Virus record (IMG/VR): IMGVR_UViG_3300009826_000003
Coordinates: 2,081-66,080 of that record
DNA from: a virus
Direction: 5' to 3' (one strand)
Length of the DNA: 64,000 bases
A model generated the notes under the pieces. It made no database searches. It was not told the DNA's origin and saw only the letters and a list, made by a program, of their open reading frames with translations. Within the stretch, counting starts at the first letter, position 1. Every line of letters starts with the position of its first letter. This document shows, piece by piece, positions 2,868 to 57,609 of the stretch. Both the position numbers and the translations under genes were made by a program.

Positions 2868-2874
2868 GCGAAAT

Positions 2875-4542: not shown

Positions 4543-5711
4543 ACTATTATGATCGTTTTCGCTTTTGTATCGAAGACGTGCATGGCAACATTGTTGCCAG
4601 AGATGTTGTGGGACAAGAGGTTAAAATCAACCGCGCGCTTAGTGGTCCGTCCGAAATCAGCATGAAGCTGCATCCGAAAGAGCCTAGTATTCAACAACTT
4701 TCAGGCGCGGGACCAATTCAGTTGAAACCGTGGGGCCACTGGATACATGCCTTGAAATACAACCAATTTGGCGAAGAGGTGTTTATAGCGTCTTGTATCA
4801 TGGAACCAAGCGAAATAGAGCCAGAGACAGGTATATTGAATTTGCGCGCAAAGGGTTTCACCAACTATGCGAAAGGCATCCCCTGGCTACAGAATTGGAA
4901 TCCCATTGCTGTTGATCCTTTTGAAATAATGGATCGCATTTGGAAGCACATTCAGAGTTATCACAATGCCGCGCTTGGGGTTTCAGTGTATCCGGCATCA
5001 AGTGGAACACTTATGTTGCCGGGATGGAGCTTTAACAATGAGCAATTCATTCAGGACTTTTTCGCTATATTCATTCGCGCCTCTGATAAAACAGACTGTG
5101 GCGAATACATTGAAAAGCTGGCGCGCGACATCCCTTTCGATTATGTCGAAGAGAGTGGATGGAATGAAAATAGGACGGCAATTAAAAAGGGAATTCGATT
5201 AGGGTATCCAAGCGGCGGAACAAAGCAACATGGCCTTGCATTTCGGAGGGGAGAGAATGTCACTGTGGCCGCGCCGAAATTAGAGTCAGAAGTGGAATGG
5301 ATGTCTGACATCATTATCGACGGATTTTTCCCTGGAAAGACTTACAGCGCAACGATTTCCAACTATGACCCTGACCGATTCCGACGTGTGATGAACGAAA
5401 TGGATTTGAGAATTGATTCGAATGAGCGCGCAGCGGCATGGGCCAAAAGGAAATTGACACGAAGGCAATTCCCTTATCAATATGAATCTCTATTTATTGA
5501 CCCTTACCATCCGAATGCACCATTTGGGACATTTGACGTTGGCGACGAAATTCTAATTGAGGGCAATATGCCTTGGGTCGGAGAAGGGATAAAACAATGG
5601 CATCGAATAATGGGGATGTCTTGGGATGAAACGAAAAAGGATGGACGGTTAGGATTGGCAGTAATGGCAGAAGGTGCATTTAACTACGATCCGATTGTGT
5701 ATATAAAATGA
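4527..5711 (+). CDS. Minor tail protein (baseplate hub/Tal-like)
   Basis: Second gene after TMP, ~394 aa. Synteny only. Confidence 0.65.
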   Translation: MANPIDYYDRFRFCIEDVHGNIVARDVVGQEVKINRALSGPSEISMKLHPKEPSIQQLSGAGPIQLKPWGHWIHALKYNQFGEEVFIASCIMEPSEIEPETGILNLRAKGFTNYAKGIPWLQNWNPIAVDPFEIMDRIWKHIQSYHNAALGVSVYPASSGTLMLPGWSFNNEQFIQDFFAIFIRASDKTDCGEYIEKLARDIPFDYVEESGWNENRTAIKKGIRLGYPSGGTKQHGLAFRRGENVTVAAPKLESEVEWMSDIIIDGFFPGKTYSATISNYDPDRFRRVMNEMDLRIDSNERAAAWAKRKLTRRQFPYQYESLFIDPYHPNAPFGTFDVGDEILIEGNMPWVGEGIKQWHRIMGMSWDETKKDGRLGLAVMAEGAFNYDPIVYIK

Positions 5712-8716: not shown

Positions 8717-9013
8717 ATGCCAAGAGGAAGCGCAAAGCCGAAACCTGTTGAGACACAATACTTTTCGCTGGAAACGCCAGAAGATTTCTTGGAGTTGTCT
8801 AAAGCTGCTCTAGGTTGGGGATACGCTGGACTTATTTCTAGTCGAATGAATCCAGACATGGGCGGAGGTCCGCTAATAGAAACGTGGCATATACAGTTAG
8901 ACAGTGAATTGCAGGTCGGATTTGAAGCGAATAAGGGAGAGGTAATCCTTTGGGAGTCAGGACATTTCAGGGCGATCACGGCTAATGAGTTTCAGGAGAA
9001 GTATAACGCATGA
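8717..9013 (+). CDS. Hypothetical protein, tail region
   Basis: 98-aa ORF abutting both neighbours. Confidence 0.7.
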   Translation: MPRGSAKPKPVETQYFSLETPEDFLELSKAALGWGYAGLISSRMNPDMGGGPLIETWHIQLDSELQVGFEANKGEVILWESGHFRAITANEFQEKYNA

Positions 9014-11286
9014 CCGAACCAGGTTGGCACGCAAGGATTTTCAAGGATTTTGAGCTAGCTATTACTCCTAGCTTGGAATTCGGCGCAGGTGGCAAAAGCG
9101 CGGCCAGTTTCGCGCTAGACGTGAGTGATGTTGTCGGTCTCGAAATCGCTTGTGCGCCAAGGCTTCCTGCTGGCTTTGAGCTTGAGGTCAACCCTGAGAT
9201 GACTTTTGCCGTTCCGGTACCTGCTGACTTTGGTTTAGAAATTCAGCCGGAAATGAGCTTTACAGGTTACGAAAAGAATTACCGACAATTCGAATTGTCT
9301 GTGGCTGAGTTTATCGAAATGGGGATGTCTGGAAAAGCTAAGGCGCAGAAGGGTTTTGAGCTGGCTGTTTCTCCTTCAATGAGTATGAAAGGTGATTTGA
9401 TCGCACCATTAGCGCCAACAGTATTGGGTATTACAGGGACCGGCGCGAACAATGGAAATGCTATAAATTGGGAATCAGCTTATATTGCAACAAATACGGC
9501 ATACGCTTTGGTAATGCTGGTAAGTAGAGCAGCAGCGATGACTATTTTTCCTGTTTTAATGAAATCATATGGCGATGTTGCTGTGGATTCTAGCGGTAAC
9601 ATTTATGTTATTACTGATAACAATACTATCAATAGGGTTACTCCTGCTGGTGTAGTGACCACCCTGCCATTTACAGGACTTAATGACCCGCGCGGAATTG
9701 CTGTGGATTCTGGTGGAAATGTGTATGTTACCAATGATGGAGCTAATAATGTTCTTAGATTAACCCCTGCGAATGTGCAAACAACATTACCTTTTACTGG
9801 AATTAATGGTCCTAGAGGAATTGCTGTAGATTCCAGCAATAATGTGTATGTGGTCAATTATAGCGCGCGAACTGTCTTGCGCCGCACCACTTCTGGCACA
9901 GGTACGCAAACCACCGTAACTCCTTCGCATTCATCAATAGCAAGCAACGTTTCTCCGTGGAGTATTGCTGTGGACTCTAGCGGAACTATTTATGTTGGCT
10001 ATTACACTAGCAATCTTATTGCTAGACGAACTAGCGCAGGCGCGACAACTATTCTCCCCTATACCGGAGGCCATGCTTGCGGAATTGCTGTAGATTCAAA
10101 TGGGAATGTATATGTAGCAGCATGGAATGGTAGCAATATTCAAATGATTACTCCTGCTGGCGTACAATCAACAGTTCCGAATTTTAACGTTGGAAATAAC
10201 TATTCGGGAATTGCAGTGGATTCATCAGGTGCAATATATTCTATGCATTGGAATGCCAGTCCATTGCGCAGTGTTGTTTCTACTAAAATTCCAGACATTC
10301 CCGCTCGAATCCCTACTCTAGAAACAGTTCCCATGAAATCGCTTGGGTCTTTTTCTGCGCACAATATGAGAGCTGACCTTTTCGGTTTACTAGATACACC
10401 AGAAAACGTTTGGCGTCCAATTGCTGTTCCAGCAGCAGCAAATTCCGCTGTTGCTTCGCAATTGGTAATTGCCACGCGGTTTAATGCTCCAATTGATTTT
10501 GATGGTCCCATTATTCCATTTCAAGCTGCGAATGTTGCTGCTGTAACTAGGAATTGGGCTAGCATGAGCGCTGCTGTTCGCGCTTTTCAATTGTTTGCAA
10601 ATTCCCAAGCGACCATTACCGCTAGCGCAGTTCCAAATACAACAGCTAATCGTTATTTGAATAATAGCTATACACAAAAGGCTGTTGTTTTCCATGAACG
10701 CGGAGATGCTACCTTTAATGCTACTACGCCAAGTAATGTTGATTGGATGGGATTAGGCGCCCCTCTTAGATTAGCAAAGGCAATTAATGGAAGATACCTT
10801 TATTCGTCTATTGGTGGTCAAGCTACATTTACCAATAATACTGACCCGGCAAATGTCGCGTGGAATCAATTTAGCGCAGGCGAAGCTTTAGTTAGGACAC
10901 AACTGTTTACAGGCGGTATTGTCAATTGGGCAATGCGAATTCAAGCAATTACTGCTGGTACTTTTCCAGGGATGGTAACCTCACAACTTCCGGTCTCCGC
11001 TGGTAAATATGTTCACTTAGACGCTGAAATCCAGTGTGCCGCAGGGGGTTCCAATACTGCTGTTGGTGTATTGATTCGGTATTTTAATTCTGCTGGCGCA
11101 TGGATTACTCAGGACGCTAATGTCCAAAATTGTCCAAATGGAAAATGGACGCCAATTTCACTCACTGAAACATGCCCTGCTGGAACAGCTTCGGTCGATT
11201 TCCTTATCTGTATGGGATTAGCTGGCACTTATAACATTAACGATATGTTCTTTGCTACTAATATCAACGCTCTAACAGAAGGGTAA
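9010..11286 (+). CDS. Tail fibre / receptor-binding protein with six NHL repeats
   Basis: Six [GS]IAVDS.G..YV-type repeats between ~9570 and 10240, plus a C-terminal CBM-like domain. Confidence 0.75.
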   Translation: MTEPGWHARIFKDFELAITPSLEFGAGGKSAASFALDVSDVVGLEIACAPRLPAGFELEVNPEMTFAVPVPADFGLEIQPEMSFTGYEKNYRQFELSVAEFIEMGMSGKAKAQKGFELAVSPSMSMKGDLIAPLAPTVLGITGTGANNGNAINWESAYIATNTAYALVMLVSRAAAMTIFPVLMKSYGDVAVDSSGNIYVITDNNTINRVTPAGVVTTLPFTGLNDPRGIAVDSGGNVYVTNDGANNVLRLTPANVQTTLPFTGINGPRGIAVDSSNNVYVVNYSARTVLRRTTSGTGTQTTVTPSHSSIASNVSPWSIAVDSSGTIYVGYYTSNLIARRTSAGATTILPYTGGHACGIAVDSNGNVYVAAWNGSNIQMITPAGVQSTVPNFNVGNNYSGIAVDSSGAIYSMHWNASPLRSVVSTKIPDIPARIPTLETVPMKSLGSFSAHNMRADLFGLLDTPENVWRPIAVPAAANSAVASQLVIATRFNAPIDFDGPIIPFQAANVAAVTRNWASMSAAVRAFQLFANSQATITASAVPNTTANRYLNNSYTQKAVVFHERGDATFNATTPSNVDWMGLGAPLRLAKAINGRYLYSSIGGQATFTNNTDPANVAWNQFSAGEALVRTQLFTGGIVNWAMRIQAITAGTFPGMVTSQLPVSAGKYVHLDAEIQCAAGGSNTAVGVLIRYFNSAGAWITQDANVQNCPNGKWTPISLTETCPAGTASVDFLICMGLAGTYNINDMFFATNINALTEG

Positions 11287-44645: not shown

Positions 44646-44891
44646 TTGAGCGCGAAAGGAAAGATTCATGCATTCCCCCCTGAATCGACCAACCGCGATC
44701 ATGGGTCGGGAGTCCCGGCAAAATCGACCCTTGCCGGGAATTCCCGATTTTCGAAAGCTATTGCTAGGCTTCCTCTTTCTGATCCATTCTTCTTACAAGA
44801 ATTGCATTTCTTTTCGGGAGTGGATTTATCCGGTAGGGTCAAATTATCAGCGCACACTCTCAGCAATCCCCTTTTGAGAAAGCAGGAATAA
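44646..44891 (+). CDS. Possible hypothetical protein
   Basis: TTG start with GGAGG; TAATG overlap; overlaps a strong hairpin. Confidence 0.35.
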   Translation: MSAKGKIHAFPPESTNRDHGSGVPAKSTLAGNSRFSKAIARLPLSDPFFLQELHFFSGVDLSGRVKLSAHTLSNPLLRKQE

Positions 44892-45628
44892 TGGTATTTC
44901 TTTACAAGGCAACTTTGCACAGGGTTGTCTCTCCGGTCACGTTATCGGTGAATTTGGATTTGGGGTTTAATCTGGTTAAGACGCAATTGATTCGCCTAAA
45001 TGGTGTTTCGATGCCAGCTACGTCAGAAGCGAAGGCGAAAGCTGTTGCTATCATTGATGATTGGCTCAATAGGCATCCGATTTTCGTTGTCCACACTCTT
45101 CAGAGCAGGGAGCCTTTTGGTCGCTTTTTCGGTACCGTTTACAGCAGGTGGGGAACTTCGCTCAACCGTAAATTGGTGAGAGCTGGTGTGGCACAAGAGA
45201 TTCCAGACGCGGAAATCCCCACAGACGAACCGGAAGAGGATTTGGATTCTGTTATCTGTGAAGTGGTTTCAGACGACGAATTGCCGGAAATTGTCCAAGA
45301 GCCAGAAGACGAACCGGAAGAGGACCGCGAACCGGAAATAGACGAAGATGAGCTAGTGGCCGAAGATGACGAATCTGATGGTACAGATGCTCTAAAGGAT
45401 TCTATGGCTTCTGAAGTGCAAGATTTCGGAGAACAGGAATTGACTGGTGAACCGGAAGATTTGCTAGAAGAAATGGACGAAGCCGAATTGATTGATGAAA
45501 TCAGAGAGGAATTGCCACGTCGCAGGCGTTGGCGGTTGAAATCTGCCGATAGAGGCGCGAAAACGCAAGTGCCAGAAGGCGATCCGCACGAAGCTGACCC
45601 AATTTCAGCAGAGGCGGAGACTCCGTGA
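44891..45628 (+). CDS. Staphylococcal-nuclease-like fold (degenerate active site) with acidic tail
   Basis: VVSPVTL..DLGF...IRLNGV..P...EPFGRFFGTVY...SLNRKLVRAG. Confidence 0.6.
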   Translation: MVFLYKATLHRVVSPVTLSVNLDLGFNLVKTQLIRLNGVSMPATSEAKAKAVAIIDDWLNRHPIFVVHTLQSREPFGRFFGTVYSRWGTSLNRKLVRAGVAQEIPDAEIPTDEPEEDLDSVICEVVSDDELPEIVQEPEDEPEEDREPEIDEDELVAEDDESDGTDALKDSMASEVQDFGEQELTGEPEDLLEEMDEAELIDEIREELPRRRRWRLKSADRGAKTQVPEGDPHEADPISAEAETP

Positions 45629-45879: not shown

Positions 45880-47424
45880 TTGGCGACACTCGACAAATGG
45901 GCCATCTATGACCATCCGCTAATAGCTTGGGAGCCTAACGCGGGACAGTTAGAGATTGCCGAAAACAATTGTCGTCACCAAGTCCTTTGCGCGGGAAGAC
46001 GTTTCGGTAAATCGCGCTGTGGAGCGATGAAGATTGTTCCCGAAATCTTTTATACCAAGCCACTTTCCAGCACGCTTTTAGAGAAGGGTCAACGTCGCGA
46101 ATTCTGGATAGTAGGACCGGAATATTCGGACTCCGAAAAGGAATTTCGCGTAATTTGGAATATTGTTAAAAAGCTCGAAATGCCAATGGAAAAGGGCAGT
46201 TACAACAATCTCGAATCAGGAGATATGCAAATTGTCTTATGGGATGGGACGTTTGTTGTTGCAGCTAAATCCGCGCGCTACCCTGATCGCCTTGTGGGAG
46301 AAGGACTTTCAGGCGTTATTTTGGCAGAAGCCGCAAAGCTCAAACGCAATTTGTGGACAAAGCATATTCGTCCTGCCCTTTCTGACTTTAACGGTTGGTC
46401 TTTCCATTCCTCCACACCAGAGGGAAAGAATTGGTTTTATGAACTATTCACGCGCGCAATTGACCCAGAGAATACGGAATGGTCTGGTTGGAAAATGCCA
46501 GCGTGGAGAAATCCCTACGTTTATCGGCAACCTACTTTAGACGAACACGTCGCGAAACTCCTTGAATTGCAACGGACTTCCTACGAATCCGTTTTCAAAT
46601 TGAAAAGAGACCATAATCTCCAAATTGACTCAGAGATTATGGATGAGATAAATGACCTTACGCCAGAGGCTTTCAAGCAAGAAATAGGCGCGGATTTCAC
46701 CGAATACGTTGGTCGCGTATTCAACGAATTTGATGAAGACATCCACGTTTCCTCTTTGAATTACAATCCGGCCTGGCAATCATTCGGCGCGGTAGACTAC
46801 GGATACACCAATCCTAGCGTTTGGTTATTGGTGCAAATTGGTCCGTGGGGAGAAATCAACGTGCTTAATGAAGTGTACGAAGAGGGTTTGGCCCCAACGG
46901 ATTTCGCGGATTTGATCCTTTATCGTAATCTGCGACCTTCCAATATGACTTGCTTTTATGCTGACCCTGCCGACCCTGGCGCGTCCCGCATTCTTGAAAG
47001 CAAGTTACAAATTCGCTCCAAGCCTCATACGGGCGGAGAATTGCAGGTCCGCTTGCGGCAGATTCGAAAAGCGTTGCGCGAGACCAGAAACGTGATACCG
47101 GAATACTGGATGCCGGATGAGCCGATACCGGGATCAAATAGGCCGCGCTTAATGTTTGATCGCAAATGCAAAAGGACAATTCAAGATTTCCTCAATTATC
47201 GTTATCCTGAATTGAAAACCGAAGTCTCCGAAGTCACCGAAAAGCCAATGAAAAAGGATGACCACGGACCAGAAGCGTTGGGACGCTTGTTCGCTGGCCT
47301 ATGGGGAGCAGAAGACAAGCCAAAAGGCGCAGTAGTACACCAAGCAACCTTCAAACGTGAAGGGAAACAACAGGTTCCAGCAGGGCCAGTCTTTCTAGAT
47401 GCCCTCGCAAATTGGCGCAGATAG
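45880..47424 (+). CDS. terL: Terminase large subunit
   Basis: AGRRFGKS Walker A, ILAEAA Walker B, STP, GAVDYG and DDHGPEA nuclease motifs. Confidence 0.93.
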   Translation: MATLDKWAIYDHPLIAWEPNAGQLEIAENNCRHQVLCAGRRFGKSRCGAMKIVPEIFYTKPLSSTLLEKGQRREFWIVGPEYSDSEKEFRVIWNIVKKLEMPMEKGSYNNLESGDMQIVLWDGTFVVAAKSARYPDRLVGEGLSGVILAEAAKLKRNLWTKHIRPALSDFNGWSFHSSTPEGKNWFYELFTRAIDPENTEWSGWKMPAWRNPYVYRQPTLDEHVAKLLELQRTSYESVFKLKRDHNLQIDSEIMDEINDLTPEAFKQEIGADFTEYVGRVFNEFDEDIHVSSLNYNPAWQSFGAVDYGYTNPSVWLLVQIGPWGEINVLNEVYEEGLAPTDFADLILYRNLRPSNMTCFYADPADPGASRILESKLQIRSKPHTGGELQVRLRQIRKALRETRNVIPEYWMPDEPIPGSNRPRLMFDRKCKRTIQDFLNYRYPELKTEVSEVTEKPMKKDDHGPEALGRLFAGLWGAEDKPKGAVVHQATFKREGKQQVPAGPVFLDALANWRR

Positions 47425-47445: not shown

Positions 47446-47886
47446 ATGCCGAAGCGTGGATGGTCAGACGCAGCTAGAGCGAAATCCCTTGCGGTTAGAC
47501 GTGCTAAAGCAACGGGAAAACCTGTTGGAAAAAGCACTATTGTTTATCACCATACAACGCCAGCAAATGCGGCAAAGATAATGAAAGGCGGTTTCAAATC
47601 TGGAAAGGTAATGGCAGGGGATAGAAACATCTATTTCTCAAATGTTAAGCGCGGAGCAGCAGGTATGTTTGGGCCAACTGCAATAGGTGTGAAAGTGCCA
47701 CGTCGCAAATTGAAAAAGGACACAAACGCATTTGCGGGAGCACCAGGCATAGTTAAAGCTGTAAAGGGTGAAAAGTGGTATAAGGCACCAGCTTCCAGCT
47801 TAAAAAACGCGCAAATTAAATCGGTAAGTGGCAAGAGGACGCGAAAACGCAAGCGCCGCAAGACATTAAGCTTAGAAACGTTGTGA
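47446..47886 (+). CDS. Basic protein with WSDAAR tag and ADP-ribosyltransferase-like core
   Basis: MPKRGWSDAARAKSLAVRRAK; VYHHTTPANAAKIMKGGF...IYFS...GEKWY. Confidence 0.6.
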   Translation: MPKRGWSDAARAKSLAVRRAKATGKPVGKSTIVYHHTTPANAAKIMKGGFKSGKVMAGDRNIYFSNVKRGAAGMFGPTAIGVKVPRRKLKKDTNAFAGAPGIVKAVKGEKWYKAPASSLKNAQIKSVSGKRTRKRKRRKTLSLETL

Positions 47887-47890
47887 TGAA

Positions 47891-49387
47891 ATGCCTTACA
47901 TACCAAGACAATACGATTCCGCCAAAGACTTTCGGAGTCAGAAGGCGATTCCGAATATTGTTGATGACATGGACGCGCAACGCATCCATTCTTATCAGCT
48001 TTATGACGATTTCTATTACAACCGGCCTGAGACCTTTTGCGTGACAGTTCGCGAGAATTCAGATACCGAAATCTATTTGCCGTCAACAAAGAAGATCGTT
48101 AATGCGACCGCGCGATTCCTCGCGGTCGATTTCAATTTCACCCTCAAGGGCGGAAGTATCGACCAGGTAGAAAACTTCTTGCACAATCTCTTTGCGCGAG
48201 AAGAGATTATGCGCCGCTTTATTCGTGGCAAGCGCTCCATGCTGACGCGCGGAGACTTGGTTTGGTACATAACCGCAGACCCAGACAAACCAGAGGGAAA
48301 ACGGTTGACAGTCAACACAATTCACCCTGGCAACGTCTTCCCAATAGAACATCCCGACGATGACACGCGCGTAATCGGTTGGCACATAGTCGATTTGGTC
48401 TCTGACCCTCGCGATAAAGATGATCCAGATAAACAGGTGGCTAGACGACAGACCTACAGGCGGAATGCCAGCGGCGAAATCACTTATGAGGCAGCAACTT
48501 TCGAAATTGGTACATGGGATGACCGAAATCTGAAAAAGGACGAAATCAAGCCGGTCTCAATCATCAAAAAGCAATTCACGTTGCCGCGCGAAATCACTGC
48601 GTTTCCAGTGTATTTGGTGCCTAATCACGAACCTGATGGTAGCTCTTGGGGAATGTCATTGGTCGCAGGCATGGAATACATCATAAACGCTCTGAATCAG
48701 TCTATAACCTACGAAGATTTGACGTTGGTGTTACAGGGTTTAGGTCTTTATGTTTCGACTGCTGGACCTCCTATAGACGCAGCAACCGGAAAAGCCGGAA
48801 AATACAAATTGCATCCTGGTAATGTTGTCGAAATAGAACACGATGACGATTTCAAAAGGGTTACCGGAGTAACTAGTTTATCGCCATTCCAAGAGCACAT
48901 AAACGCTTTAGATCGTTGGGGAATGGATGGCTGTGGCGTGCCTGATATGGCTACTGGCTCAATAGAAGTCAGCGTAGCGCAGAGCGGAATTGCGCTGGCG
49001 CTGAAAATGGGACCAATTATTGCGGAGAATTCAGACCGTGAATTGGCATTAGGTGGTAAATGGGACCAAATAGGATATGACCTCATAAATGGATGGATGC
49101 CTGCTTATGAGGGAATTCGTTCCGATACCGAATTCAAAGCGATATTTGGCGATCCAATGCCGATTAACCGTGAAGCCTATATTAACGAATTAATCCAATT
49201 ATCGGTAATGAATTTGATTACGCTTGATGAGGTCCGCGAAAAGCTCGAAGTAATTGGTTATGAGAATACTGCTGGTGTTGTCGAACAGCTTTACGAACAA
49301 ATGGAAAGGCGCGCAATTTCGAATTCAGGCGGAGCTTTCATGGAAGAAACGCCGAATCCCCAAGAGGAACAACAATATTCGGAGTGA
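47891..49387 (+). CDS. Portal protein
   Basis: 498 aa after terL; SGIALALKMGPI motif near the C-terminus. Confidence 0.85.
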   Translation: MPYIPRQYDSAKDFRSQKAIPNIVDDMDAQRIHSYQLYDDFYYNRPETFCVTVRENSDTEIYLPSTKKIVNATARFLAVDFNFTLKGGSIDQVENFLHNLFAREEIMRRFIRGKRSMLTRGDLVWYITADPDKPEGKRLTVNTIHPGNVFPIEHPDDDTRVIGWHIVDLVSDPRDKDDPDKQVARRQTYRRNASGEITYEAATFEIGTWDDRNLKKDEIKPVSIIKKQFTLPREITAFPVYLVPNHEPDGSSWGMSLVAGMEYIINALNQSITYEDLTLVLQGLGLYVSTAGPPIDAATGKAGKYKLHPGNVVEIEHDDDFKRVTGVTSLSPFQEHINALDRWGMDGCGVPDMATGSIEVSVAQSGIALALKMGPIIAENSDRELALGGKWDQIGYDLINGWMPAYEGIRSDTEFKAIFGDPMPINREAYINELIQLSVMNLITLDEVREKLEVIGYENTAGVVEQLYEQMERRAISNSGGAFMEETPNPQEEQQYSE

Positions 49388-49391
49388 TGAA

Positions 49392-49730
49392 ATGGCGTGG
49401 ACAGATGCCGCAAGATTAGCCAGCGCCGCCGCGCGAAGGGCGAAAAAAGGCACTGGTATTGGTTCTATGAGCTTTAATCCAAACAAGCATCTTAGAACAC
49501 CAAAGGGGAGAATAAGCAAAACGGGAAAGGCGGCATTAAAGAAGCAATATATAAAACAGGGTGGCAGCAATACATTACGCGGAGGGTTAGGGAAGGCAAA
49601 TAAAAAGAAAAGCGCCGCTTCAGATTCCGCAAAGAATTTGAATAAAACCAAAAAGGCTTATATAAGGCCAACACATACAAGCGGAAAAAGAGTAAAGGGT
49701 GCCACTGGTAGATCAATTAGGATGAGATAG
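49392..49730 (+). CDS. Basic MAWTDAAR-family protein
   Basis: MAWTDAARLASAAARRAK; Lys/Arg-rich; start moved to ATG 49392. Confidence 0.85.
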   Translation: MAWTDAARLASAAARRAKKGTGIGSMSFNPNKHLRTPKGRISKTGKAALKKQYIKQGGSNTLRGGLGKANKKKSAASDSAKNLNKTKKAYIRPTHTSGKRVKGATGRSIRMR

Positions 49731-49734
49731 TGAA

Positions 49735-50466
49735 ATGTCCGAAAGGCCAGAGCTATTCACACTTGAATTTTGGCAAGCCACCATAACCCAAGCGGTACAT
49801 GGAATGGCGGCAGGGGGAATTGGTCCGTTAGTTGCGCATCAAGCGAATTTGATTGGAGATGTCCCTTGGTACGGTATTATGTCATCAATGGCCGCAGGTG
49901 CTTTAATCTCCTTTTTGGGATCGCTTACTACACTTAGGATTCCAGGCCGCGTACCTGGCTCTTTCCTCAAAGAGACCACCGAAGAGGCGCGGGTAGAGCG
50001 AATGGTGTTGCGAGAAGAGGCAATTGCCTTGGAGCGCAAGCGAATTCGAAACGCTATAGAAGACAAGAACTTTGGTGATTATATGGACAGGCATAGAGCG
50101 GACGAACCTCGCGAATATGGCCTAAGCGGTGAGATGCATAGCGTCGAAGGCGAAAACGCTACTTGGACAGACCCTTTCGAAGCTAACCAAAATTGCTCTG
50201 TAACAGACACGGAGGGGAACAAGGTTGCTGAATTCAATAACGAATCGCGGCCTGTTCCAATGCAAGACGTTCCAAGACGCGAACCACCGGAAACCTATGC
50301 GCCACAACGGATTTCGCAAGAGCCAGAGATTTCCGGCCTACCAACTTGGGCACAAACGGAGCGTGATCTAGACATCTATCCCGAAGTGCCTGAGCCACAA
50401 CACAATTCAGAAGAGGATTGGCCGCAGGGCGGAAAGCGCGGAAAACATTCGCAAGGAAAGGAATAA
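49735..50466 (+). CDS. r1t-type holin-like domain fused to a long acidic soluble tail
   Basis: FTLEFWQATITQAV...VPWYGIMSSMAAGALISFLGSL resembles the phage r1t holin family. Confidence 0.55.
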   Translation: MSERPELFTLEFWQATITQAVHGMAAGGIGPLVAHQANLIGDVPWYGIMSSMAAGALISFLGSLTTLRIPGRVPGSFLKETTEEARVERMVLREEAIALERKRIRNAIEDKNFGDYMDRHRADEPREYGLSGEMHSVEGENATWTDPFEANQNCSVTDTEGNKVAEFNNESRPVPMQDVPRREPPETYAPQRISQEPEISGLPTWAQTERDLDIYPEVPEPQHNSEEDWPQGGKRGKHSQGKE

Positions 50467-50471
50467 GGAAA

Positions 50472-50696
50472 ATGGTAACAACTGCATTAGTGTGGTTTCT
50501 CTGGATCGCTTTATCCGTTTTGATTGTGCTTGTGTTGGTTGAATTGTTTGCTACCGCAACAGCAATCAAGGTGATTAAGCACGTCGAAACAATTGAAGAC
50601 GAATACCGTTCACATTCGCGTGTCACCTATCGGTATCCTGAGCCAAACCAGGTGAAATTGCAAGAGTCACCGACCATTCACCCTCAAGAAGACTGA
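50472..50696 (+). CDS. Small membrane protein
   Basis: Long hydrophobic N-terminal helix. Confidence 0.7.
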   Translation: MVTTALVWFLWIALSVLIVLVLVELFATATAIKVIKHVETIEDEYRSHSRVTYRYPEPNQVKLQESPTIHPQED

Positions 50697-50724
50697 AAAC
50701 TGTTGCTAGAGAAGGGATTTCATC

Positions 50725-51165
50725 ATGGCTTGGACTGATGCGGCTAGGATCGCAAGCGCTGCTGCTAGACGTGCAAAGGGTAAAACTGGACTTCGAAAAG
50801 GAGGAGCTAATCTTAGTCATCGTGGATCAAAAAAGACTTTTCCAACCGCCACAACTGGATATGCAAAATTGAAATCGAATAAGCCAGCAGCATATGGAGT
50901 TAGAGTAAGTGCTAGAACAGGTCAGGGATACCGAAAGGTTGGGAACGCTGTTGGTGTAAAGGCGCCATTTTCTGCCGGTGGAGTTGTAAAGGGTAAAGGA
51001 AAAACTGGATGGAAAAAGCCTAGTCAAATGGGTGCTCCATTAATTAGGACAAAAAACAAGGTGAAAATGAATAAAACTTTTGATTCTCCAAAAGCAATGG
51101 AAAGGGCAAGAAAAGCCAATAAAGGTGCAATGCTTCGGCGCAGGGCAAAACGTCGCAAGGGATAA
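50725..51165 (+). CDS. Basic MAWTDAAR-family protein
   Basis: MAWTDAARIASAAARRAK; Lys/Arg/Gly-rich. Confidence 0.85.
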   Translation: MAWTDAARIASAAARRAKGKTGLRKGGANLSHRGSKKTFPTATTGYAKLKSNKPAAYGVRVSARTGQGYRKVGNAVGVKAPFSAGGVVKGKGKTGWKKPSQMGAPLIRTKNKVKMNKTFDSPKAMERARKANKGAMLRRRAKRRKG

Positions 51166-51193
51166 TATGGGCTATTCGACAGAAGGTGATATT

Positions 51194-51340
51194 GTGCCTT
51201 TCAAATCGAAAGCGCAGCAGCGCTTTGCATTCGGGACGCATCAGCCTTGGGCTAAGACGTGGGCCAGACATACCAAAAGCTTCAAAAAGCTACCTGCTCG
51301 AAAACACAAGCGCCACAAGGGAAGACGAAAGAGGAAGTAA
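51194..51340 (+). CDS. 48-aa basic protein
   Basis: MPFKSKAQQRFAF...RKHKRHKGRRKRK; GTG start after GAAGGTG. Confidence 0.7.
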   Translation: MPFKSKAQQRFAFGTHQPWAKTWARHTKSFKKLPARKHKRHKGRRKRK

Positions 51341-51546
51341 TGCTAGATAGGTTGTGGGAGAAGCTAGCTCAAAAGGTCGCGGTCAGGGTAGGCGAAATTC
51401 TCCAAGCGAATTTGCCGAAGATCATTGAGACCATCGTTAGCACAGTGATAAACGAAGTCTTCAAACGCTATCAAATTCTGGCCCCTACCAACGAAATTCG
51501 AAATACCGTCAACGATATAATGTCTCGAATGGGAATCAGGCGATGA
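51340..51546 (+). CDS. Small hypothetical protein
   Basis: MLDRLWEK..., TAATG overlap. Confidence 0.65.
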   Translation: MLDRLWEKLAQKVAVRVGEILQANLPKIIETIVSTVINEVFKRYQILAPTNEIRNTVNDIMSRMGIRR

Positions 51547-51926
51547 AACGTGATGACATCGTAAAATGGTTGCAGCGCAGGGCAATTCAGGCCGCACCAT
51601 TCGAAGCGTGCGGTTTTATTTTGAACGATGGCGAAATCATCGAGATTCCAAATGGCGCGGAAGACCCTTCGCGTCATTTTTTGATGACCTCTGATGGCTT
51701 GGCGAAAACCCTTAAGCCAGGCCAGATTTCGCGAATTATCGGCATCTGGCATACGCACCCTAAAGGCTCAAATGAGCCTAGCTACACAGACATTCACGCG
51801 ATGAGTATTGGTGCGGTACAACCGGATTGGCTCTATCTGATCGCCACTGGAAGCGCGGTAACCTGGTGGAATCCGAAAGACTATGTGCCACAAGACAATT
51901 CGTTTTGGAATGAATTTGTAGCATGA
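51543..51926 (+). CDS. JAB/MPN+ metalloprotease
   Basis: EACGFI...WHTHPKGSNEPSYTD = E...HxH-x7-S-x2-D. Confidence 0.85.
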   Translation: MKRDDIVKWLQRRAIQAAPFEACGFILNDGEIIEIPNGAEDPSRHFLMTSDGLAKTLKPGQISRIIGIWHTHPKGSNEPSYTDIHAMSIGAVQPDWLYLIATGSAVTWWNPKDYVPQDNSFWNEFVA

Positions 51927-53737
51927 GCGCTCCCTTTTTCGATGATGAAGAGGAATGGGATGAATTCCATGAATTAGAAGGTTTTCCTAGGCCACTAGTA
52001 AAGATGTCTAAGAGGGCCAGGCGCGCACGTTGGCTAGGTGGTCTCCTGGCAGCAAATGCGGTATTTGAAAAGAGCTTAAAAGGCGCATTAAACAAGACTT
52101 CTGGTGCTGTGGCAGAAGCGTTCTCCCCCAAGAGATTTGAAGGACTTTCACCAGAGGCAGAAAAAGCTCAAATTGTGTTGGCGCAGAACGATATTCGGCA
52201 AGATTTGGAAAAGCTTTTCCAGTCCACTCAAGGCTTTGTGGATACTGGAAAGCGCCGCGCGGCAGGGGAATCCGCTAACGCTTCGATGTCTGAGCAGCGC
52301 CATTTAATCGAACGAATTTTTCCCAATCAGAATGACCGGAACAGATACCGGGAATCGTTGCTAGCCACTGCAATTCGGAATCAAGAATCAAGGGAGACCC
52401 GAATCCGTGATACGAAAATTCCTCTCTCACAACAGGTTTGGAAGACACAAGCGCTTTCGCGTGGTCTTGTGGATAAAGTTATTAATGATGGCTTGGCGTC
52501 TGGCAAAGGTTATCGTCAAATTGCTAAAGAGGTCCGACATCTGGTGAATCCTGGTGCGCCAGGCGGTATTTCGTATGCAGCACTTCGCTTGGGACGCACG
52601 GAGATTAACAACGCATTTCACGCGCAGAGCATAGCCGACGCGCGGAACCAACCGTGGATTGACCATATGCGTTGGAATTTGGGAATGAGGCATCACGTTC
52701 CTGATGAATGTGATGAATGGGAAGATAGGTTATTTAGAGCGGACGAAGTGCCACCATTACCTCATCCGAATTGTTGGTGTTACACAACGCCGGAAATGCC
52801 TGATTGGGAAACCTTTTCGCAGAATTTGACAATGGGAGTTTATGACCCTTACATAAATCAGGTAATGGCAGATTGGGATAAAAACGTTGCGGCCAGAGCG
52901 TATGTATTTCGTGATTTTGATACTGGAAAAGAGTACGCAGTCGAAGGACCAGAATGGCGCGTAAGATCGCCAGAGGACTACGCACGGAATAAGGCTGCGC
53001 TAGAACGGATTAACGCAGTATATCCAGAATTGCATGGTGGCTTTTATGGCGTGTCAATTCCTGGCCAGCGCGGAACAACAATTGATCCGCGCTCAACAGA
53101 AGAATTGGCGGAAGCCGTCGAAACAATGGCCAAGAAATATCCAGATGTTAAATTGCTGCGCTTGGGATTTGGTGATACCGGAAAGGATTATGGCATTACA
53201 TTTTGCTCTGATCCTAATGGCTCTGTAACTGTGCCGACAAAATGGGGAACTGAATTACCAATTCCAAATTCATATTACAGTCGAATTGTGCTGAATCAGG
53301 ATATGGCTAAAGAGTATTCTGGATGGTGGGAAAAGGCTAAAAGCGATGAAATGTCGCGATTTCACACTGTAGGCGCGGCTTCTCAACCTATTCTGTCCAC
53401 CTATTACCATGAATTCGGTCACGCAATGGTTAATGCGTTGGGTAACAAGGGGTTACCGGACGCTAAACCGCCTGACATGATTACCGGAGTACAGGTGAAT
53501 AGAGCGGTAAAGGACGCATGGAAAGCGCAAAAGACATCTGTTCCGTATAAGGAATGGATTAGAAACAATTTGTCTGGTTATTCATTTCAGAAAAGAGGGA
53601 GTCATTTACTTGATAAAGACGAAGCATTAGCGGAGGCATTCGATGTTGTGGAGCGGTTAGGCAAAGAGGGGGCCACTCCTGCTGAATGGGCATTGCATAA
53701 ACTACTAACAGATAGGTACAAGGCACGTTATGGGTAG
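51923..53737 (+). CDS. MuF-like minor capsid protein fused to zincin metallopeptidase domain
   Basis: RLGRTEINNA...HPNCWC (MuF/SPP1 gp7-like); HEFGH...EALAEAF (zincin). Confidence 0.8.
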   Translation: MSAPFFDDEEEWDEFHELEGFPRPLVKMSKRARRARWLGGLLAANAVFEKSLKGALNKTSGAVAEAFSPKRFEGLSPEAEKAQIVLAQNDIRQDLEKLFQSTQGFVDTGKRRAAGESANASMSEQRHLIERIFPNQNDRNRYRESLLATAIRNQESRETRIRDTKIPLSQQVWKTQALSRGLVDKVINDGLASGKGYRQIAKEVRHLVNPGAPGGISYAALRLGRTEINNAFHAQSIADARNQPWIDHMRWNLGMRHHVPDECDEWEDRLFRADEVPPLPHPNCWCYTTPEMPDWETFSQNLTMGVYDPYINQVMADWDKNVAARAYVFRDFDTGKEYAVEGPEWRVRSPEDYARNKAALERINAVYPELHGGFYGVSIPGQRGTTIDPRSTEELAEAVETMAKKYPDVKLLRLGFGDTGKDYGITFCSDPNGSVTVPTKWGTELPIPNSYYSRIVLNQDMAKEYSGWWEKAKSDEMSRFHTVGAASQPILSTYYHEFGHAMVNALGNKGLPDAKPPDMITGVQVNRAVKDAWKAQKTSVPYKEWIRNNLSGYSFQKRGSHLLDKDEALAEAFDVVERLGKEGATPAEWALHKLLTDRYKARYG

Positions 53738-53984
53738 ACGAAAGCACTTGTCTAACATAGAGATTCAGGCCAACTTTGATGAATGGCTCAAAAAGGCGAT
53801 GAAGGGAGAATATCCGCGTGCTGAATTAGGATTAGAGGAAGAGGTAATTGCTGCGCTGACGGCAATTGCGTACAGATTTCCAAACTTCAGAAATGAAGAC
53901 ATCAGAATTGCAAGAGAGCAATTCCAGAAGCAGAAGCGCGGAGACTTCCGCCGCGAAGAGGAACGGACGCTGAAAAGACTGTGA
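53730..53984 (+). CDS. Small hypothetical protein (possible partner of the MuF fusion)
   Basis: 84 aa overlapping the MuF stop. Confidence 0.65.
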   Translation: MGRRKHLSNIEIQANFDEWLKKAMKGEYPRAELGLEEEVIAALTAIAYRFPNFRNEDIRIAREQFQKQKRGDFRREEERTLKRL

Positions 53985-54110
53985 CCTCCGCGCGGAAACG
54001 CTGCTGACCTGCGGAAATTCGACCTGCGAAAACCCTTGTGCCACAAGGCCATCAGGACTAATATGTGGCTTAAGGTCCGACCGGCTGAAAAACGAAAAGT
54101 GAGAAATTCG

Positions 54111-54770
54111 ATGGTTTCAGAGAAGTTTTGGACAATTTGGGGATTACCGCTCCCTTTTGGCGCAGAAGAGGAAGAGGAAAAGGAAAAGCCGAAAGATGAA
54201 GCGGGACAACAGAATTCGCCGGATTCGAAACCTCCTGAAAAGAAGGAAGATTCAGACGACGAAGACAATCCATATGCAGGACTCTCCGCTAAGGAACTTC
54301 GCCGTATTATCTCTGATACTGAGCAATCGAAGAAAGACGTTGAGGCAGAACGGGATTCATTCAAAGAAAAGGTAGACGAAGCGGAACGCGCAACAAAGAC
54401 CAAAGAAGAAAATCTCGAAAATGACGTAAAGGCAAGGGACGCAACGATTTCCACGCTCCGCGCAACTAATGCGAAGTTGGCCATCATCAACGGGATTCTG
54501 ATGGAAACGAAGTGGCGTTGGCACAATCCCGAAATCGTTGCGCAGCAACTAGATTCAAAGCTAGTCAAGGTCACTGACGACGGCAAGGTTGATGGGTTGC
54601 AGCGCGAATTAGCAAGGGTCGCAAAGGATCACAGTTATCTCTTGGTAAAGGGGAATTCGAATAACCAAGGGTCAACAGGAATTCAGCCCGGTCAGGGCAG
54701 TAGTCCAAATCAAGGGAAAAGTCCCAAAGATTTGGCGAAAGATTATCCCGCACTACTAGGTCGAATCTAG
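54111..54770 (+). CDS. Capsid scaffolding protein
   Basis: Charged coiled coil upstream of capsid genes. Start moved to ATG 54111. Confidence 0.75.
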   Translation: MVSEKFWTIWGLPLPFGAEEEEEKEKPKDEAGQQNSPDSKPPEKKEDSDDEDNPYAGLSAKELRRIISDTEQSKKDVEAERDSFKEKVDEAERATKTKEENLENDVKARDATISTLRATNAKLAIINGILMETKWRWHNPEIVAQQLDSKLVKVTDDGKVDGLQRELARVAKDHSYLLVKGNSNNQGSTGIQPGQGSSPNQGKSPKDLAKDYPALLGRI

Positions 54771-54799
54771 TTGCGCGGCAACCTGATTGGAAGGGCAGA

Positions 54800-55198
54800 A
54801 TGTCGAGATATGATAAATATGACCCAAAGAGCGGAGGCTTTCGTGCTCCGCTTGCTGGTGACTTCGATCCTGAAGACGTCGAAAAGCTAATTGGCGTTGG
54901 CCTAGACGAAAATGGCCGCGTTGTCAAAGGTGAAGGGAACACTGGAATTAAAGGTGTTCTAGTTTTGACAATGGTTCGTAAAGCCGGTGAAGTAATCGAC
55001 GTAATGACAGATGGTGAAATTGTCGAATTCGAAGGCGAAGATGGCGTGCCAGGAAAAGACCTTGCAAAACCTGGTACCAATTACTTTGTTGATGGAGATG
55101 GCAAAGTCGCTGAAGATGGCGATTTATACGTTGGGGCCACTGTCCAAAATCACAGGCTAGTTGTTCGATTTGGAAGGGCGGTACCTGAAAGTGACTAG
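54800..55198 (+). CDS. Capsid decoration/stabilising protein
   Basis: 132 aa, beta-rich, between scaffold and capsid genes. Confidence 0.6.
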   Translation: MSRYDKYDPKSGGFRAPLAGDFDPEDVEKLIGVGLDENGRVVKGEGNTGIKGVLVLTMVRKAGEVIDVMTDGEIVEFEGEDGVPGKDLAKPGTNYFVDGDGKVAEDGDLYVGATVQNHRLVVRFGRAVPESD

Positions 55199-56426
55199 CA
55201 CTCTTTATCTTCCAGATACCGTTGGTTTATCTGAAGTTAAATTGCCTTTTGGCGCGGAGACTTCGACCACTTACGAACATACAGACGTTAATGCGCAGGG
55301 TTACCATACTGAGGGAGACATTTTATATGTCACCAATGATGGAATTGACATCAACGCTTTGTGGGCGGAAGCTCTTGGCGTGCTTGACGTTTGGAACGCA
55401 GGGAGAGACCGCCTTGTGGCTCTTATGTCTTTCCCTGTTGTCAGAGAAATAGAGACAATTCCGCAGGTTGGCGAAGCGACGTTTGAACTTGCTTCGGAAT
55501 TCGGTGAGCCAGAAGGCGAACGCCTGAAAATCGGGTACTTTAACCTTGGATTCGATTTTAGGGATTATGACCGCGCAACCCGATTTACTTGGAAAGCGTT
55601 GCGGGACATGGACGCTCGCCAGGTTCGCGCTGTGAATGATGCTCTGTTGCAAGCGGATCGCCGTCTGATCTTTAAGCAAGTAATGGCGGCAATATTCGAT
55701 AATCGCGAAAGGCAAACATCCATTCGCGGAAATCCGTATAAGGTTTATTCGCTATACAATGGCGATGACACCGAACCTCCGCCATATTTGGGAACTAGGT
55801 TCTCTGTTCCGCACGATCATTATATGGTTAGCGGAAATGAGCTAATTGATTCGCAGGATTTGGAAGACGCTTACGATAACATTTCGGAGCACGGTTATTC
55901 AATTGACAATGGTACGCAAATTGTCTGCTTGCTTAACCGAAACCAAATCAAGGAAACGCGACGTTTCCGAATGGATAAAGAGAATAACAATGGCGCAATA
56001 GCCAATTATGACTTTATTCCTTCGCGTAATCAGCCTGCTCAATTGCTTGAAACGCCAATGGGTTTGATTGGTTCTCTTCCGCCTGACACTTGGAATGGTC
56101 TTCGCGTTTATGGTTCTTATGGCGACATTCTTTTGATCGAAGAGCCATTTATGCCGGACAAGTATTTCCTTATGTTTGGCACGGGCGGAGTCGAGAATCT
56201 GCAAAATCTTGTTGGTTTGCGCGAGCACGCAAATCCGCAATATCGCGGTCTGAAGATAATTCCTGGCCGCGATCAGCGTTACCCTTTGATAGAGTCTTAC
56301 TACACAAGGGGTTTCGGAACCGGAATTCGACAAAGGGGCGGAGCCGTTGTTATGCAAATTGGCGACGTTTCAGAGTACGAAATTCCAGACCAGTTCGATA
56401 GGGAAAACGGAAAGTTCGTCAGTTAG
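55191..56426 (+). CDS. Major capsid protein
   Basis: ~411 aa, position and HK97-like size. Start moved to GTG 55191. Confidence 0.8.
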   Translation: MTSTLYLPDTVGLSEVKLPFGAETSTTYEHTDVNAQGYHTEGDILYVTNDGIDINALWAEALGVLDVWNAGRDRLVALMSFPVVREIETIPQVGEATFELASEFGEPEGERLKIGYFNLGFDFRDYDRATRFTWKALRDMDARQVRAVNDALLQADRRLIFKQVMAAIFDNRERQTSIRGNPYKVYSLYNGDDTEPPPYLGTRFSVPHDHYMVSGNELIDSQDLEDAYDNISEHGYSIDNGTQIVCLLNRNQIKETRRFRMDKENNNGAIANYDFIPSRNQPAQLLETPMGLIGSLPPDTWNGLRVYGSYGDILLIEEPFMPDKYFLMFGTGGVENLQNLVGLREHANPQYRGLKIIPGRDQRYPLIESYYTRGFGTGIRQRGGAVVMQIGDVSEYEIPDQFDRENGKFVS

Positions 56427-56432
56427 CTTGGG

Positions 56433-56487
56433 GGATAAGGGGTTTCGTATCAGCGTCCAGCAGCGTCTTCCGCGAAATCCCTTATCC
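56433..56487 (+). terminator. Long hairpin after capsid gene (attenuator or stabiliser)
   Basis: GGATAAGGGGTTTCG/CGAAATCCCTTATCC 15-bp stem; no U-tract. Confidence 0.5.
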
Positions 56488-56509
56488 ACCAACAAGATTG
56501 GTGGTAAGC

Positions 56510-56863
56510 ATGGCTAGGGTTATTCCGCTAGACAAACCGCTTTCTGACGAAGACGAAAAGTACCTTCGATCCAGAGGCCGCTTTGCCGACATAGAAAGAA
56601 ATAGGAAAAAGTTCGCAGATGCGAAATCATCGAAATCACAACAGGATTCAAAGAAGGCAGAAGAGAAGCCAGCGCCGAAACCTGAAGGAGCGCAAAAATT
56701 CTCACTAGACCAAGACATCTTCGAAAAGGTCAAAGCATTTACACATGAAGATTTGAATGTGGAATTTGCAAAGGCCGGTCTAGACGCTCCCTCTACCGTT
56801 CGCGAAATGAGAGTTGTTCTGGCACAACATCTTCAGAATGAACGGAATAAGGGGAGTGGATAA
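56510..56863 (+). CDS. Hypothetical head-region protein
   Basis: MARVIPLDKPLSDED... Confidence 0.7.
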   Translation: MARVIPLDKPLSDEDEKYLRSRGRFADIERNRKKFADAKSSKSQQDSKKAEEKPAPKPEGAQKFSLDQDIFEKVKAFTHEDLNVEFAKAGLDAPSTVREMRVVLAQHLQNERNKGSG

Positions 56864-57187
56864 ATGGCTTGGACAGATGCCGCGCGCGCTGCGTCTGCTG
56901 CTGCCAGACGTGCGAAAGCTACTGGTGGCAAACGGCGTTCGACAGGTAAAAGGCGTTCAAAAACACGAAACAAAATGCTTAAACGGAAGCGACCTACTTC
57001 TGGCATTACAATTCCAAAAGGGAAAAATCAACGCAGGCAACGCGGAAGAGCCTTCAAAAAAGTAGGCAGAGGTCAAGCCGGAAGAATGCGTGGATTTGGA
57101 CAAAAGAAAAGCCGCAAAACCAAAAAGCAATCAGAGGTTTATAAAGCTAAGAGAAGGTCACCATTAAAGTATAGAAAGAAACGATAA
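56864..57187 (+). CDS. Basic MAWTDAAR-family protein (protamine-like)
   Basis: 107 aa, extremely Arg/Lys-rich. Confidence 0.85.
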   Translation: MAWTDAARAASAAARRAKATGGKRRSTGKRRSKTRNKMLKRKRPTSGITIPKGKNQRRQRGRAFKKVGRGQAGRMRGFGQKKSRKTKKQSEVYKAKRRSPLKYRKKR

Positions 57188-57609
57188 TGGCGTGGACAGA
57201 TGCAGCTAGAGCCGCCTCCGCAGCAGCACGTCGCGCGAAAGCTACTGGTAGGAAAAGGAATAACCCAAGCTGGCCTAAGAAAAGACGTTCGACAGGTAAA
57301 AAGCGATCAAAACCTAGAAATACACCAGCGGCTAGACGTGGTGAATCAGCTAGGCGAAAGGCTAGCCGTGTCCGTAAAAAGGAAACGTTATCTAGCTCAA
57401 AACGTCAGCGCGGCAGGGGAGTTCGGAGGTCAGGACGTGGTGCTGGTCAGAAACAAGCGGATTATAGGCGTGGAAGTAAAACGCGCGCAGGTAAAAAGGC
57501 TAGTCTAAAAAGAGGGTTAAAAGCAAAGGCAAATCGAAAGAGGTATGCGAGGTCAACAGCAAAGAAATTTAGTAAGGGGAGTTGGGCTAAAAGAGGAAAG
57601 AAACGATAA
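57187..57609 (+). CDS. Basic MAWTDAAR-family protein (protamine-like)
   Basis: 140 aa tandem paralogue; TAATG overlaps. Confidence 0.85.
   Translation: MAWTDAARAASAAARRAKATGRKRNNPSWPKKRRSTGKKRSKPRNTPAARRGESARRKASRVRKKETLSSSKRQRGRGVRRSGRGAGQKQADYRRGSKTRAGKKASLKRGLKAKANRKRYARSTAKKFSKGSWAKRGKKR

Follow-up and report, generated by a model that had tools for sequence, protein, structure and literature searches.

The region analysed here is a stretch of 64,000 nucleotides (hereafter the window), bases 2081-66080 of the IMG/VR virus record IMGVR_UViG_3300009826_000003, whose whole genome is 71,237 bp long and carries direct terminal repeats. The window has a G+C content of about 47%. A late block of siphovirus type occupies its positions 45.9-64 kb and contains five open reading frames (ORFs), termed tag1 to tag5, with the common N-terminal sequence (M)A-W-[ST]-D-A-A-R-x-[AK]-S-x-A-x-R-R-A-K. 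The first-pass annotation of this DNA had listed five ORFs with such N-termini, and all five were confirmed on the plus strand, at the following positions (motif given from W to K).

47446..47886, plus strand: tag1, 146 amino acids (aa), between the terminase and portal genes; motif at 47461-47508.
49392..49730, plus strand: tag2, 112 aa, directly 3′ of the portal gene; motif at 49398-49445.
50725..51165, plus strand: tag3, 146 aa, 3′ of a holin-like gene encoding two transmembrane segments; motif at 50731-50778.
56864..57187, plus strand: tag4, 107 aa, 3′ of the phrog_5318 gene, downstream of the capsid gene; motif at 56870-56917.
57187..57609, plus strand: tag5, 140 aa, its start overlapping the tag4 stop (TAATG); motif at 57193-57240.

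The late block runs from the terminase large subunit gene through tag1, portal, tag2, the two-transmembrane holin-like gene, whose product has an acidic tail, and tag3 to a gene for a 57-aa protein (SKAQ), a small ORF, a JAB/MPN gene, a MuF gene with an HExxH region, another small ORF and a PF06810 scaffold gene, followed by a phrog_5042 gene, the major capsid protein gene (phrog_3990), the phrog_5318 gene, tag4, tag5 and the connector, tail-tube, chaperone and tape-measure genes. The tagged ORFs are scattered among head genes, as had been noted earlier, their neighbours being the genes for the terminase large subunit, portal, MuF fusion, scaffold and major capsid protein.

The five products have isoelectric points (pI) of 11.7-12.0, Lys plus Arg (K+R) contents of 25-40% and net charges of +28 to +51. 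For tag2, whose ATG sits within a longer TTG-initiated frame from 49254, the pI is 12.0 and K+R 27%; tag4 and tag5 have K+R contents of 40% and 39% and net charges of +41 and +51, respectively. The exact sequence of tag3 is present in the ESM Atlas, where its predicted local distance difference test score (pLDDT) of 0.40 indicates disorder, and a look-alike search of the ESM Atlas found no family. Similarity from body to body was detected for the tag4/tag5 pair alone and was weak (42% over 43 aa, E 0.03), which suggests that these two are tandem paralogues. With that exception, the earlier description of the bodies as diverging, Lys/Arg-rich (pI about 12) and mostly unrelated was correct. Four bodies are disordered and protamine-like, with extreme Lys/Arg content, high pI and, from the tag3 Atlas model, disorder; the remaining one, that of tag1, in which MPKRG precedes the motif, is a small alpha/beta domain with a weak resemblance to ADP-ribosyltransferases (ARTs).

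The AlphaFold2 (AF2) model of tag1, computed from four sequences, was of low confidence (pLDDT 56). Foldseek searches with this model returned Tpt1/KptA (E 2.4e-3), exotoxin A, diphtheria toxin and PARP10 as the best matches in PDB, and HYD1-type ARTs as the best matches in AFDB; almost all of these best matches belonged to the ADP-ribosyltransferase superfamily, with weak E values of 2e-3 to 4e-5. The split beta-sheet fold of ARTs is typified by a triad of H-Y-[EDQ] type; a Tyr-His pair was invariant in the four-sequence alignment and is kept in the homologues P0145 and P0125, and no sequence-profile match of tag1 to the ART families was obtained in Pfam. The modelled tag1 body thus weakly resembles the ART fold, which falls short of proof.

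A regular-expression scan in six frames gave five matches to the motif, each at one of the five N-termini, and a profile hidden Markov model (HMM) of 37 instances scored the five tags at 39-47 bits, the next best stretch of the window scoring 3.7 bits. The whole genome contains exactly five copies. Over the 16 codons of the tag, nucleotide identity between copies was 54-73%, with 0.60-1.03 synonymous differences per synonymous site (pS), which is saturated, versus 0.06-0.32 nonsynonymous differences per nonsynonymous site (pN); tag4 and tag5 encode identical 16-residue peptides with 13 nucleotide differences (73% nucleotide identity). As synonymous sites are saturated and replacement differences are few, selection acts on the peptide and not on the DNA, which bears out the earlier remark that synonymous codons differ under a conserved peptide. 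Recent gene conversion or duplication as the origin of the common N-termini is ruled out by the saturated synonymous sites, and an mRNA-level signal by the variation in codons together with the presence of the motif inside other proteins (see below). No Pfam match at E<=1 was found for the five tagged proteins, and when these and the SKAQ protein were scanned against PHROGs, the tagged proteins obtained no more than two weak matches outside the motif (E 0.03 and 0.16). A full-text literature search for the motif strings returned unrelated acronyms alone, and no such motif is described in the papers on Papyrus/Send513 or in the polyvalent-protein paper.

Relatives and other loci used for comparison are referred to below by L numbers and their proteins by P numbers. 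The general form of the motif is W-[ST]-D-[AE]-A-R-x-A-[SA]-x-A-x-R-[RKQ]-A-[KRH]. R12 (counting W as position 0) was found in 232 of 232 instances, though it lies outside the pattern by which the instances were collected. Residues W0, A4, A7, A/V11 and A14 follow a 4-3-4-3 (heptad) spacing of small residues, with R5, S8 and R12 alongside. These features suggest an amphipathic helix, N-capped and rich in Ala, some 16-20 residues long, and in the AF2 model of tag1 a helix of residues 8-22 spans the tag.

Small residues at heptad a/d spacing would suit a coiled coil of the 'Alacoil' type, in which the motif would pair with other copies of itself, oligomerise scaffold-like proteins and gather the small basic ones into multivalent condensers of DNA; entry into the capsid would then have another cause, such as electrostatic binding to the acidic scaffold segment. 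Tandem pairs with short Gly/Pro linkers (in P0013, P0026, P0028, P0069 and L028) and the several copies per polypeptide and per genome are consistent with such self-association, which would also explain conservation across phages with unrelated shell proteins. However, the window variants are nearly Ala-only on the putative core, so that the driving force would be small, and self-association by itself leaves the restriction to head modules unexplained. We regard it as a rather unlikely explanation, though one that overlaps in part with the docking-helix reading given below.

One flank of the helix bears the invariant R5, S8 and R12, the carriers are basic in the extreme, and DNA is the sole ligand common to all these phages; the motif might therefore be a DNA-contact helix of histone- or protamine-like proteins that would condense or protect DNA, whether inside the head or in the cell, and would not serve as an address. 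On the other hand, a strictly conserved extra helix would be needless for generic binding by tails that are already poly-cationic, the most conserved face is Trp/Ala and not polar, Asp2 is near-invariant, and acidic proteins that begin with a prohead protease domain (D+E up to 20%) contain the motif as well. By analogy with known scaffold/protease systems, these protease-led carriers would act before DNA entry. Taken with these features, simple DNA contact appears unlikely.

The tag is not confined to this phage. When IMG/VR was scanned by pattern, the motif turned up in many viral contigs that are unrelated to one another and have G+C contents of 43-68%, often in several copies per genome. 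Among 1.84 billion representative proteins searched with the profile, 149 matches (protein clusters) reached E<=1e-3, ten of them E<=1e-10. Seventy-nine matches were shorter than 250 aa (median K+R 19%, D+E 7%), and in 52 of these 79 the motif lay within the first 12 residues; large matches had 2-5 motif copies, usually after h-h-N-x-G or [LI]-x-E-x. The description of the motif as an N-terminal leader thus holds for all five ORFs of the window, but elsewhere it often forms internal repeats. Copies per genome numbered five in L009, four each in L026 and L013, three in L175, two in L052 and at least six in an 87-kb contig, in which at least six ORFs start with MTGWTD[AE]AR. In L009, a close relative (capsid protein 81% and portal 75% identical), the five basic ORFs with the tag are arranged in tandem. 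Scanning 185,579 species genomes for the DNA pattern yielded 120 stretches, with the true motif by HMM at 12 loci; the remaining stretches were chance matches in GC-rich DNA. The true copies belong to metagenome-assembled genomes (MAGs) assigned to Lentisphaeraceae, Victivallales, Akkermansia and other Verrucomicrobiota, plus a few further MAGs; the proteins concerned contain 1-6 motifs each and reach 1,740 aa. Whole-protein searches with the five-protein alignment and with tag1 returned only the queries themselves and one 83-aa JGI protein. Judged from these sequences, the motif is a widespread, portable module on unrelated bodies, namely disordered basic tails, an ART-like domain, a SKAQ-like domain and proteins of the protease/scaffold slot. 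It marks head-module proteins across uncultured phages and prophages of the PVC group (Lentisphaerae, Verrucomicrobia), and links small protamine-like proteins to those of the protease/scaffold slot.

At every annotated locus the carriers adjoin terminase and portal genes, the portals belonging to five PHROG families (phrog_64, 145, 10963, 104 and 146). Tagged genes directly upstream of the large terminase gene, the usual slot of the small terminase, occur in L008, L013, L019 and L026, and such genes could encode packaging-accessory or cytoplasmic proteins, whose tag would bind terminase or portal from outside, or a host factor, so that they would modulate packaging initiation or host takeover without being part of the virion. 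Several disordered paralogues per genome are unlike small terminases, though, the tagged genes of the window and of L052 are scattered among portal, capsid and connector genes, and fusion of the motif behind prohead proteases, together with its occurrence in the protease/scaffold slot, indicates the interior of the head; we consider an external or cytoplasmic role improbable. A superficial likeness to the N-terminal arginine-rich motif (ARM) peptides of lambdoid N proteins might also be taken to mean that the tag binds RNA, at a hairpin array elsewhere in the genome. Such a role is highly improbable, as the motif repeats in head-protease fusions of many phages and the genes lie in the late structural block, with no link to hairpins found.

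The Mu-like_Pro (PF10123) protease domain starts four of the ten best large matches, and also the carriers in L018 and L024, and is followed by 1-3 motifs; in the multi-motif proteins this domain, outside the motif, was the only Pfam match. In L035, the gene for a Mu-like_Pro plus motif protein comes directly after a Portal_Mu gene and before unannotated downstream genes. Mu-like phages encode protease and scaffold directly after the portal, and prohead proteases and scaffolds act inside the procapsid. As the motif follows prohead-protease domains, it is tied to the prohead interior. One further carrier has peptidoglycan-binding domains, and P0005, a multi-motif protein, adjoins a portal and a polyvalent-type protein, a class proposed to be packaged and injected (PMC5512222). 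In L013 (8236-10426), L030 (1820-2866) and related loci, a conserved acidic prefix ending in [LI]-x-E-x precedes the motif, and outside the window 20 of 191 internal instances are preceded by [LIVM]-x-E-x-W. The [LI]-x-E end of the prefix matches the T4-type prohead-protease site, and a motif behind it may be a mature N-terminus after cleavage, or an anchor, and not an address. No T4-type protease was found in contigs L013 and L030 by Pfam.

The association with prohead proteases and with the protease/scaffold slot, the strict confinement to head modules, the joining of the motif to unrelated bodies and the fast turnover of copies (see below) are all consistent with capsid-resident proteins. 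From these we infer that the motif is a helix that docks proteins on the inside of the capsid, where they would be internal, embedded in DNA and possibly ejected, a reading to which we assign about an even chance. The Trp/Ala face (W0, A4, A7, A/V11, A14), flanked by R5 and R12, would pack on a helix of an interior head component; candidates are the shell, scaffold and portal proteins and a further copy of the motif itself. This binding would recruit or anchor the carrier during prohead assembly; after packaging, the Lys/Arg tails would be embedded in the DNA, neutralise its charge and perhaps exit with it. Several observations weigh against this reading. The scaffold, capsid protein and portal of the window contain no copy of the motif by the profile, and the capsid genes of carrier phages, where annotated, belong to different families or to none, so that conservation across differing portal and capsid families is easier to fit with a universal ligand (DNA) or with self-association than with a protein partner that evolves fast. 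In L013 and L030 the address function could reside in the acidic prefix and not in the motif, and the ART-like assignment of tag1 comes from a low-confidence model (pLDDT 56). No cultured phage carrier was found by tblastn of tag1, the three-motif segment of P0009 and P0074 against 50,697 GenBank phage records, in which the low-complexity filter may hide some matches. A complex prediction for capsid protein, scaffold and a 32-residue tag peptide gave a score of 0.00, which, being without controls, is evidence neither way.

The capsid-targeting sequence (CTS) of T4, carried by IPI-III and Alt, is likewise a short N-terminal peptide on diverse, mostly basic proteins encoded with the head genes, and its gene set is likewise hypervariable and includes an ART-type enzyme, Alt, of which the weak fold matches of tag1 are reminiscent. 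Foreign proteins, too, are brought into the scaffolding core by the T4 CTS (PMC3012670, PMC5512222), and T-even internal-protein genes are hypervariable with only the CTS in common (PMC3012670). Unlike the CTS, to which it has no sequence likeness, the present motif also forms internal repeats and spans unrelated lineages. The CTS cleavage motif [LI]-x-E is absent after the tag in the window, where RRAK-[AGK]-[TGK]-[GT] follows without Glu. When the head block of the window was scanned against Pfam and PHROG, no T4-, HK97- or Mu-type prohead protease and no T4-type core came to light, the scans yielding in this respect only the JAB protein, the MuF fusion with its HExxH region and the PF06810 scaffold. 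The tag is functionally closest to the T4 CTS, yet no member of that family, since two defining features fail. The earlier proposal of an undescribed cargo-loading tag stands in part: the peptide is portable, under selection, located in a packaging/head module wherever its context was annotated and without a Pfam or PHROG family, but the cleavage features of the T4 CTS are lacking.

In P22, and in 80alpha/SaPI with CpmB, short basic helices at the C-termini of scaffold proteins recruit them to the shell interior, one and the same motif serving more than one protein in competition for the shell, and protease-scaffold fusions are known from Mu (gpI/gpZ) and herpesviruses. The motif resembles these in that it follows Mu-like protease domains in the protease/scaffold slot, and differs in that the coat-binding helices are C-terminal and the motif is N-terminal or internal; moreover, the PF06810 scaffold of the window is without it. 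The small basic J protein of phiX174 is anchored to the capsid interior by a separate short segment, and J, adenovirus VII and mu and baculovirus P6.9, which neutralise packaged DNA, are small and highly basic like the tagged proteins, though they belong to other virus classes and show no sequence relation. Since proteins of tailed phages cannot enter with the DNA via the portal, proteins of this kind would need to be loaded into the prohead. Encapsulin cargo-loading peptides are portable and dock diverse cargo inside an HK97-fold shell; unlike the motif, they are usually C-terminal, extended and Gly/Ser/Leu-rich, the sequences are not alike, and this phage has no encapsulin. Head proteins that are internal or ejected have been detailed for few model phages (T4, P22, T7 and phiKZ-like phages), and to our knowledge little has been reported on how siphoviruses with separate scaffolds load such proteins. 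What distinguishes the present case is a motif that crosses lineages, its presence behind prohead proteases, and interchangeable tags within one lineage that includes cultured mycobacteriophages. If the motif is indeed an address or anchor, it would aid the annotation of many 'hypothetical' head genes, help to explain charge neutralisation of packaged DNA and provide a small capsid-loading tag.

The body of tag1 is homologous to gp6 of mycobacteriophage Papyrus, which occupies the same slot between terminase and portal (BLASTP E 3e-7). Papyrus gp6 starts with MPKR-VTTAKQ-AA-NLEKAR, a start common to Papyrus gp9 and gp10, and a tag of this TAKQ type is found on small basic ORFs of L177 (four), L041 (three) and L178 (one). 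The TAKQ family, [R]TAKQ.AA[SA][RK].NL.KAR, thus comprises 1-4 head-module proteins per genome in cluster R mycobacteriophages and uncultured relatives. As the homologous bodies of tag1 and Papyrus gp6 each carry the tag of their own genome, the tag type is common within a genome and exchanged between genomes. TAKQ-type loci are the following.

L001 (Papyrus), 3269-6063.
L041.
L177, 1974-3478.
L178, 5306-5512.

Two ORFs of Nocardia phage P3.1 (L033) start with MARNYKRDG-GRFAK, and three of Gordonia phage LittleFella (L034) with AWGNALGGY..RD..GRF. This third type of N-terminal motif, with RD..G[RK]F, recurs on basic head-module proteins, and as HPRDKGGKF in larger neighbouring proteins, with loci as follows.

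L033, 8003-8573.
L034, 3436-7205.
L177, 455-1429.
L026, 1-2559.

Cuke, Fowlmouth and Indlulamithi have no such common tags, and Pfam contains no family for the TAKQ-type, RD..GRF-type or SKAQ proteins. The counterpart tags in cultured mycobacteriophages have other sequences and occur where experiments are possible. These patterns raise the further idea that the W-helix is a protease-independent, lineage-spanning 'interior address' of scaffolds, prohead proteases and cargo alike, which we consider possible but doubtful. If it held, some 18 residues would load any protein into the head as a minimal encapsidation tag, and the actinophage lineage would use interchangeable W-, TAKQ- and RD..GRF-types that co-vary with the genome, a cargo-loading code open to study in cultured Papyrus.

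Copies of the tagged genes also turn over rapidly. L052, whose capsid protein is 84% identical to that of the window, has two W-tagged genes, one of them inserted among the connector genes, and the closest relatives L052 and L053 have no tag4 or tag5 at the equivalent site. In two short contigs, further W-tagged basic ORFs flank tag1-like proteins. Copy number is accessory and fast-changing, as at the internal-protein loci of T-even phages. In L174 (468-785), a W-type tag (MAWTEAAR...) is fused to a SKAQ-like domain; in the window, SKAQ is encoded by a separate, untagged gene (51167-51340). In L052, the closest complete relative, an N6/N4 DNA methyltransferase gene (2603-3868) lies in the terminase-portal slot, which is the place of tag1 in the window. 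The head block of L009 contains, by eye from Cys/His motifs, two HNH endonuclease-like ORFs (3651-4013 and 8766-9284), one between terminase and portal and the other among the tagged genes, and an untagged superbasic ORF of 73 aa (3430-3651). In L030 (8063-12738), an HNH endonuclease-like insertion is present in the portal gene, and the head protein adjoining the portal gave a sub-threshold intein splicing match (32.4 bits; cut-off 35.8).

The other assigned genes of the head block of the window are listed below.

45880..47424, plus strand: terminase large subunit (PF03237 and phrog_2).
47891..49387, plus strand: portal protein (phrog_64, E 5e-43).
51167..51340, plus strand: basic 57-aa SKAQ protein, untagged (phrog_1375, unknown function).
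51543-51926, plus strand: JAB/MPN protein (PF14464).
51923-53737, plus strand: MuF minor-head protein with a C-terminal HExxH region (PF04233); phrog_17987 was matched in the interval of these two genes (51543..53737).
54111..54770, plus strand: scaffolding protein (PF06810, phrog_4866), its likely true start being the ATG at 54111 (alignment A6).
55161..56426, plus strand: major capsid protein (phrog_3990, E 2e-160).

In its capsid protein the window shares about 70% identity with mycobacteriophages Indlulamithi, Cuke and Papyrus, and their blocks are syntenic with its own. The scaffold (54141-54164) and the major capsid protein (about 55239-55259) share an N-terminal L-P-F-G-[AG]-E motif. 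In the capsid protein, P-F-G is invariant among nine sequences (alignment A4), and in a 120-sequence alignment (A5) G is invariant and P nearly so; in the scaffold, P and F of LPFGAE are nearly invariant among 11 sequences, and LPFGAE is followed by a poly-acidic run that is kept as D/E in relatives. This shared sequence could be a maturation-cleavage or docking site common to both proteins. Long, very acidic tails are found on a 245-aa protein encoded directly upstream of the terminase gene (44891-45628) and on the two-transmembrane holin-like protein (49735-50466). Homologues of both acidic-tailed proteins were seen solely in relatives with the W-tag (L009, L052 and L175), and these proteins might be chaperones or partners of the superbasic proteins.

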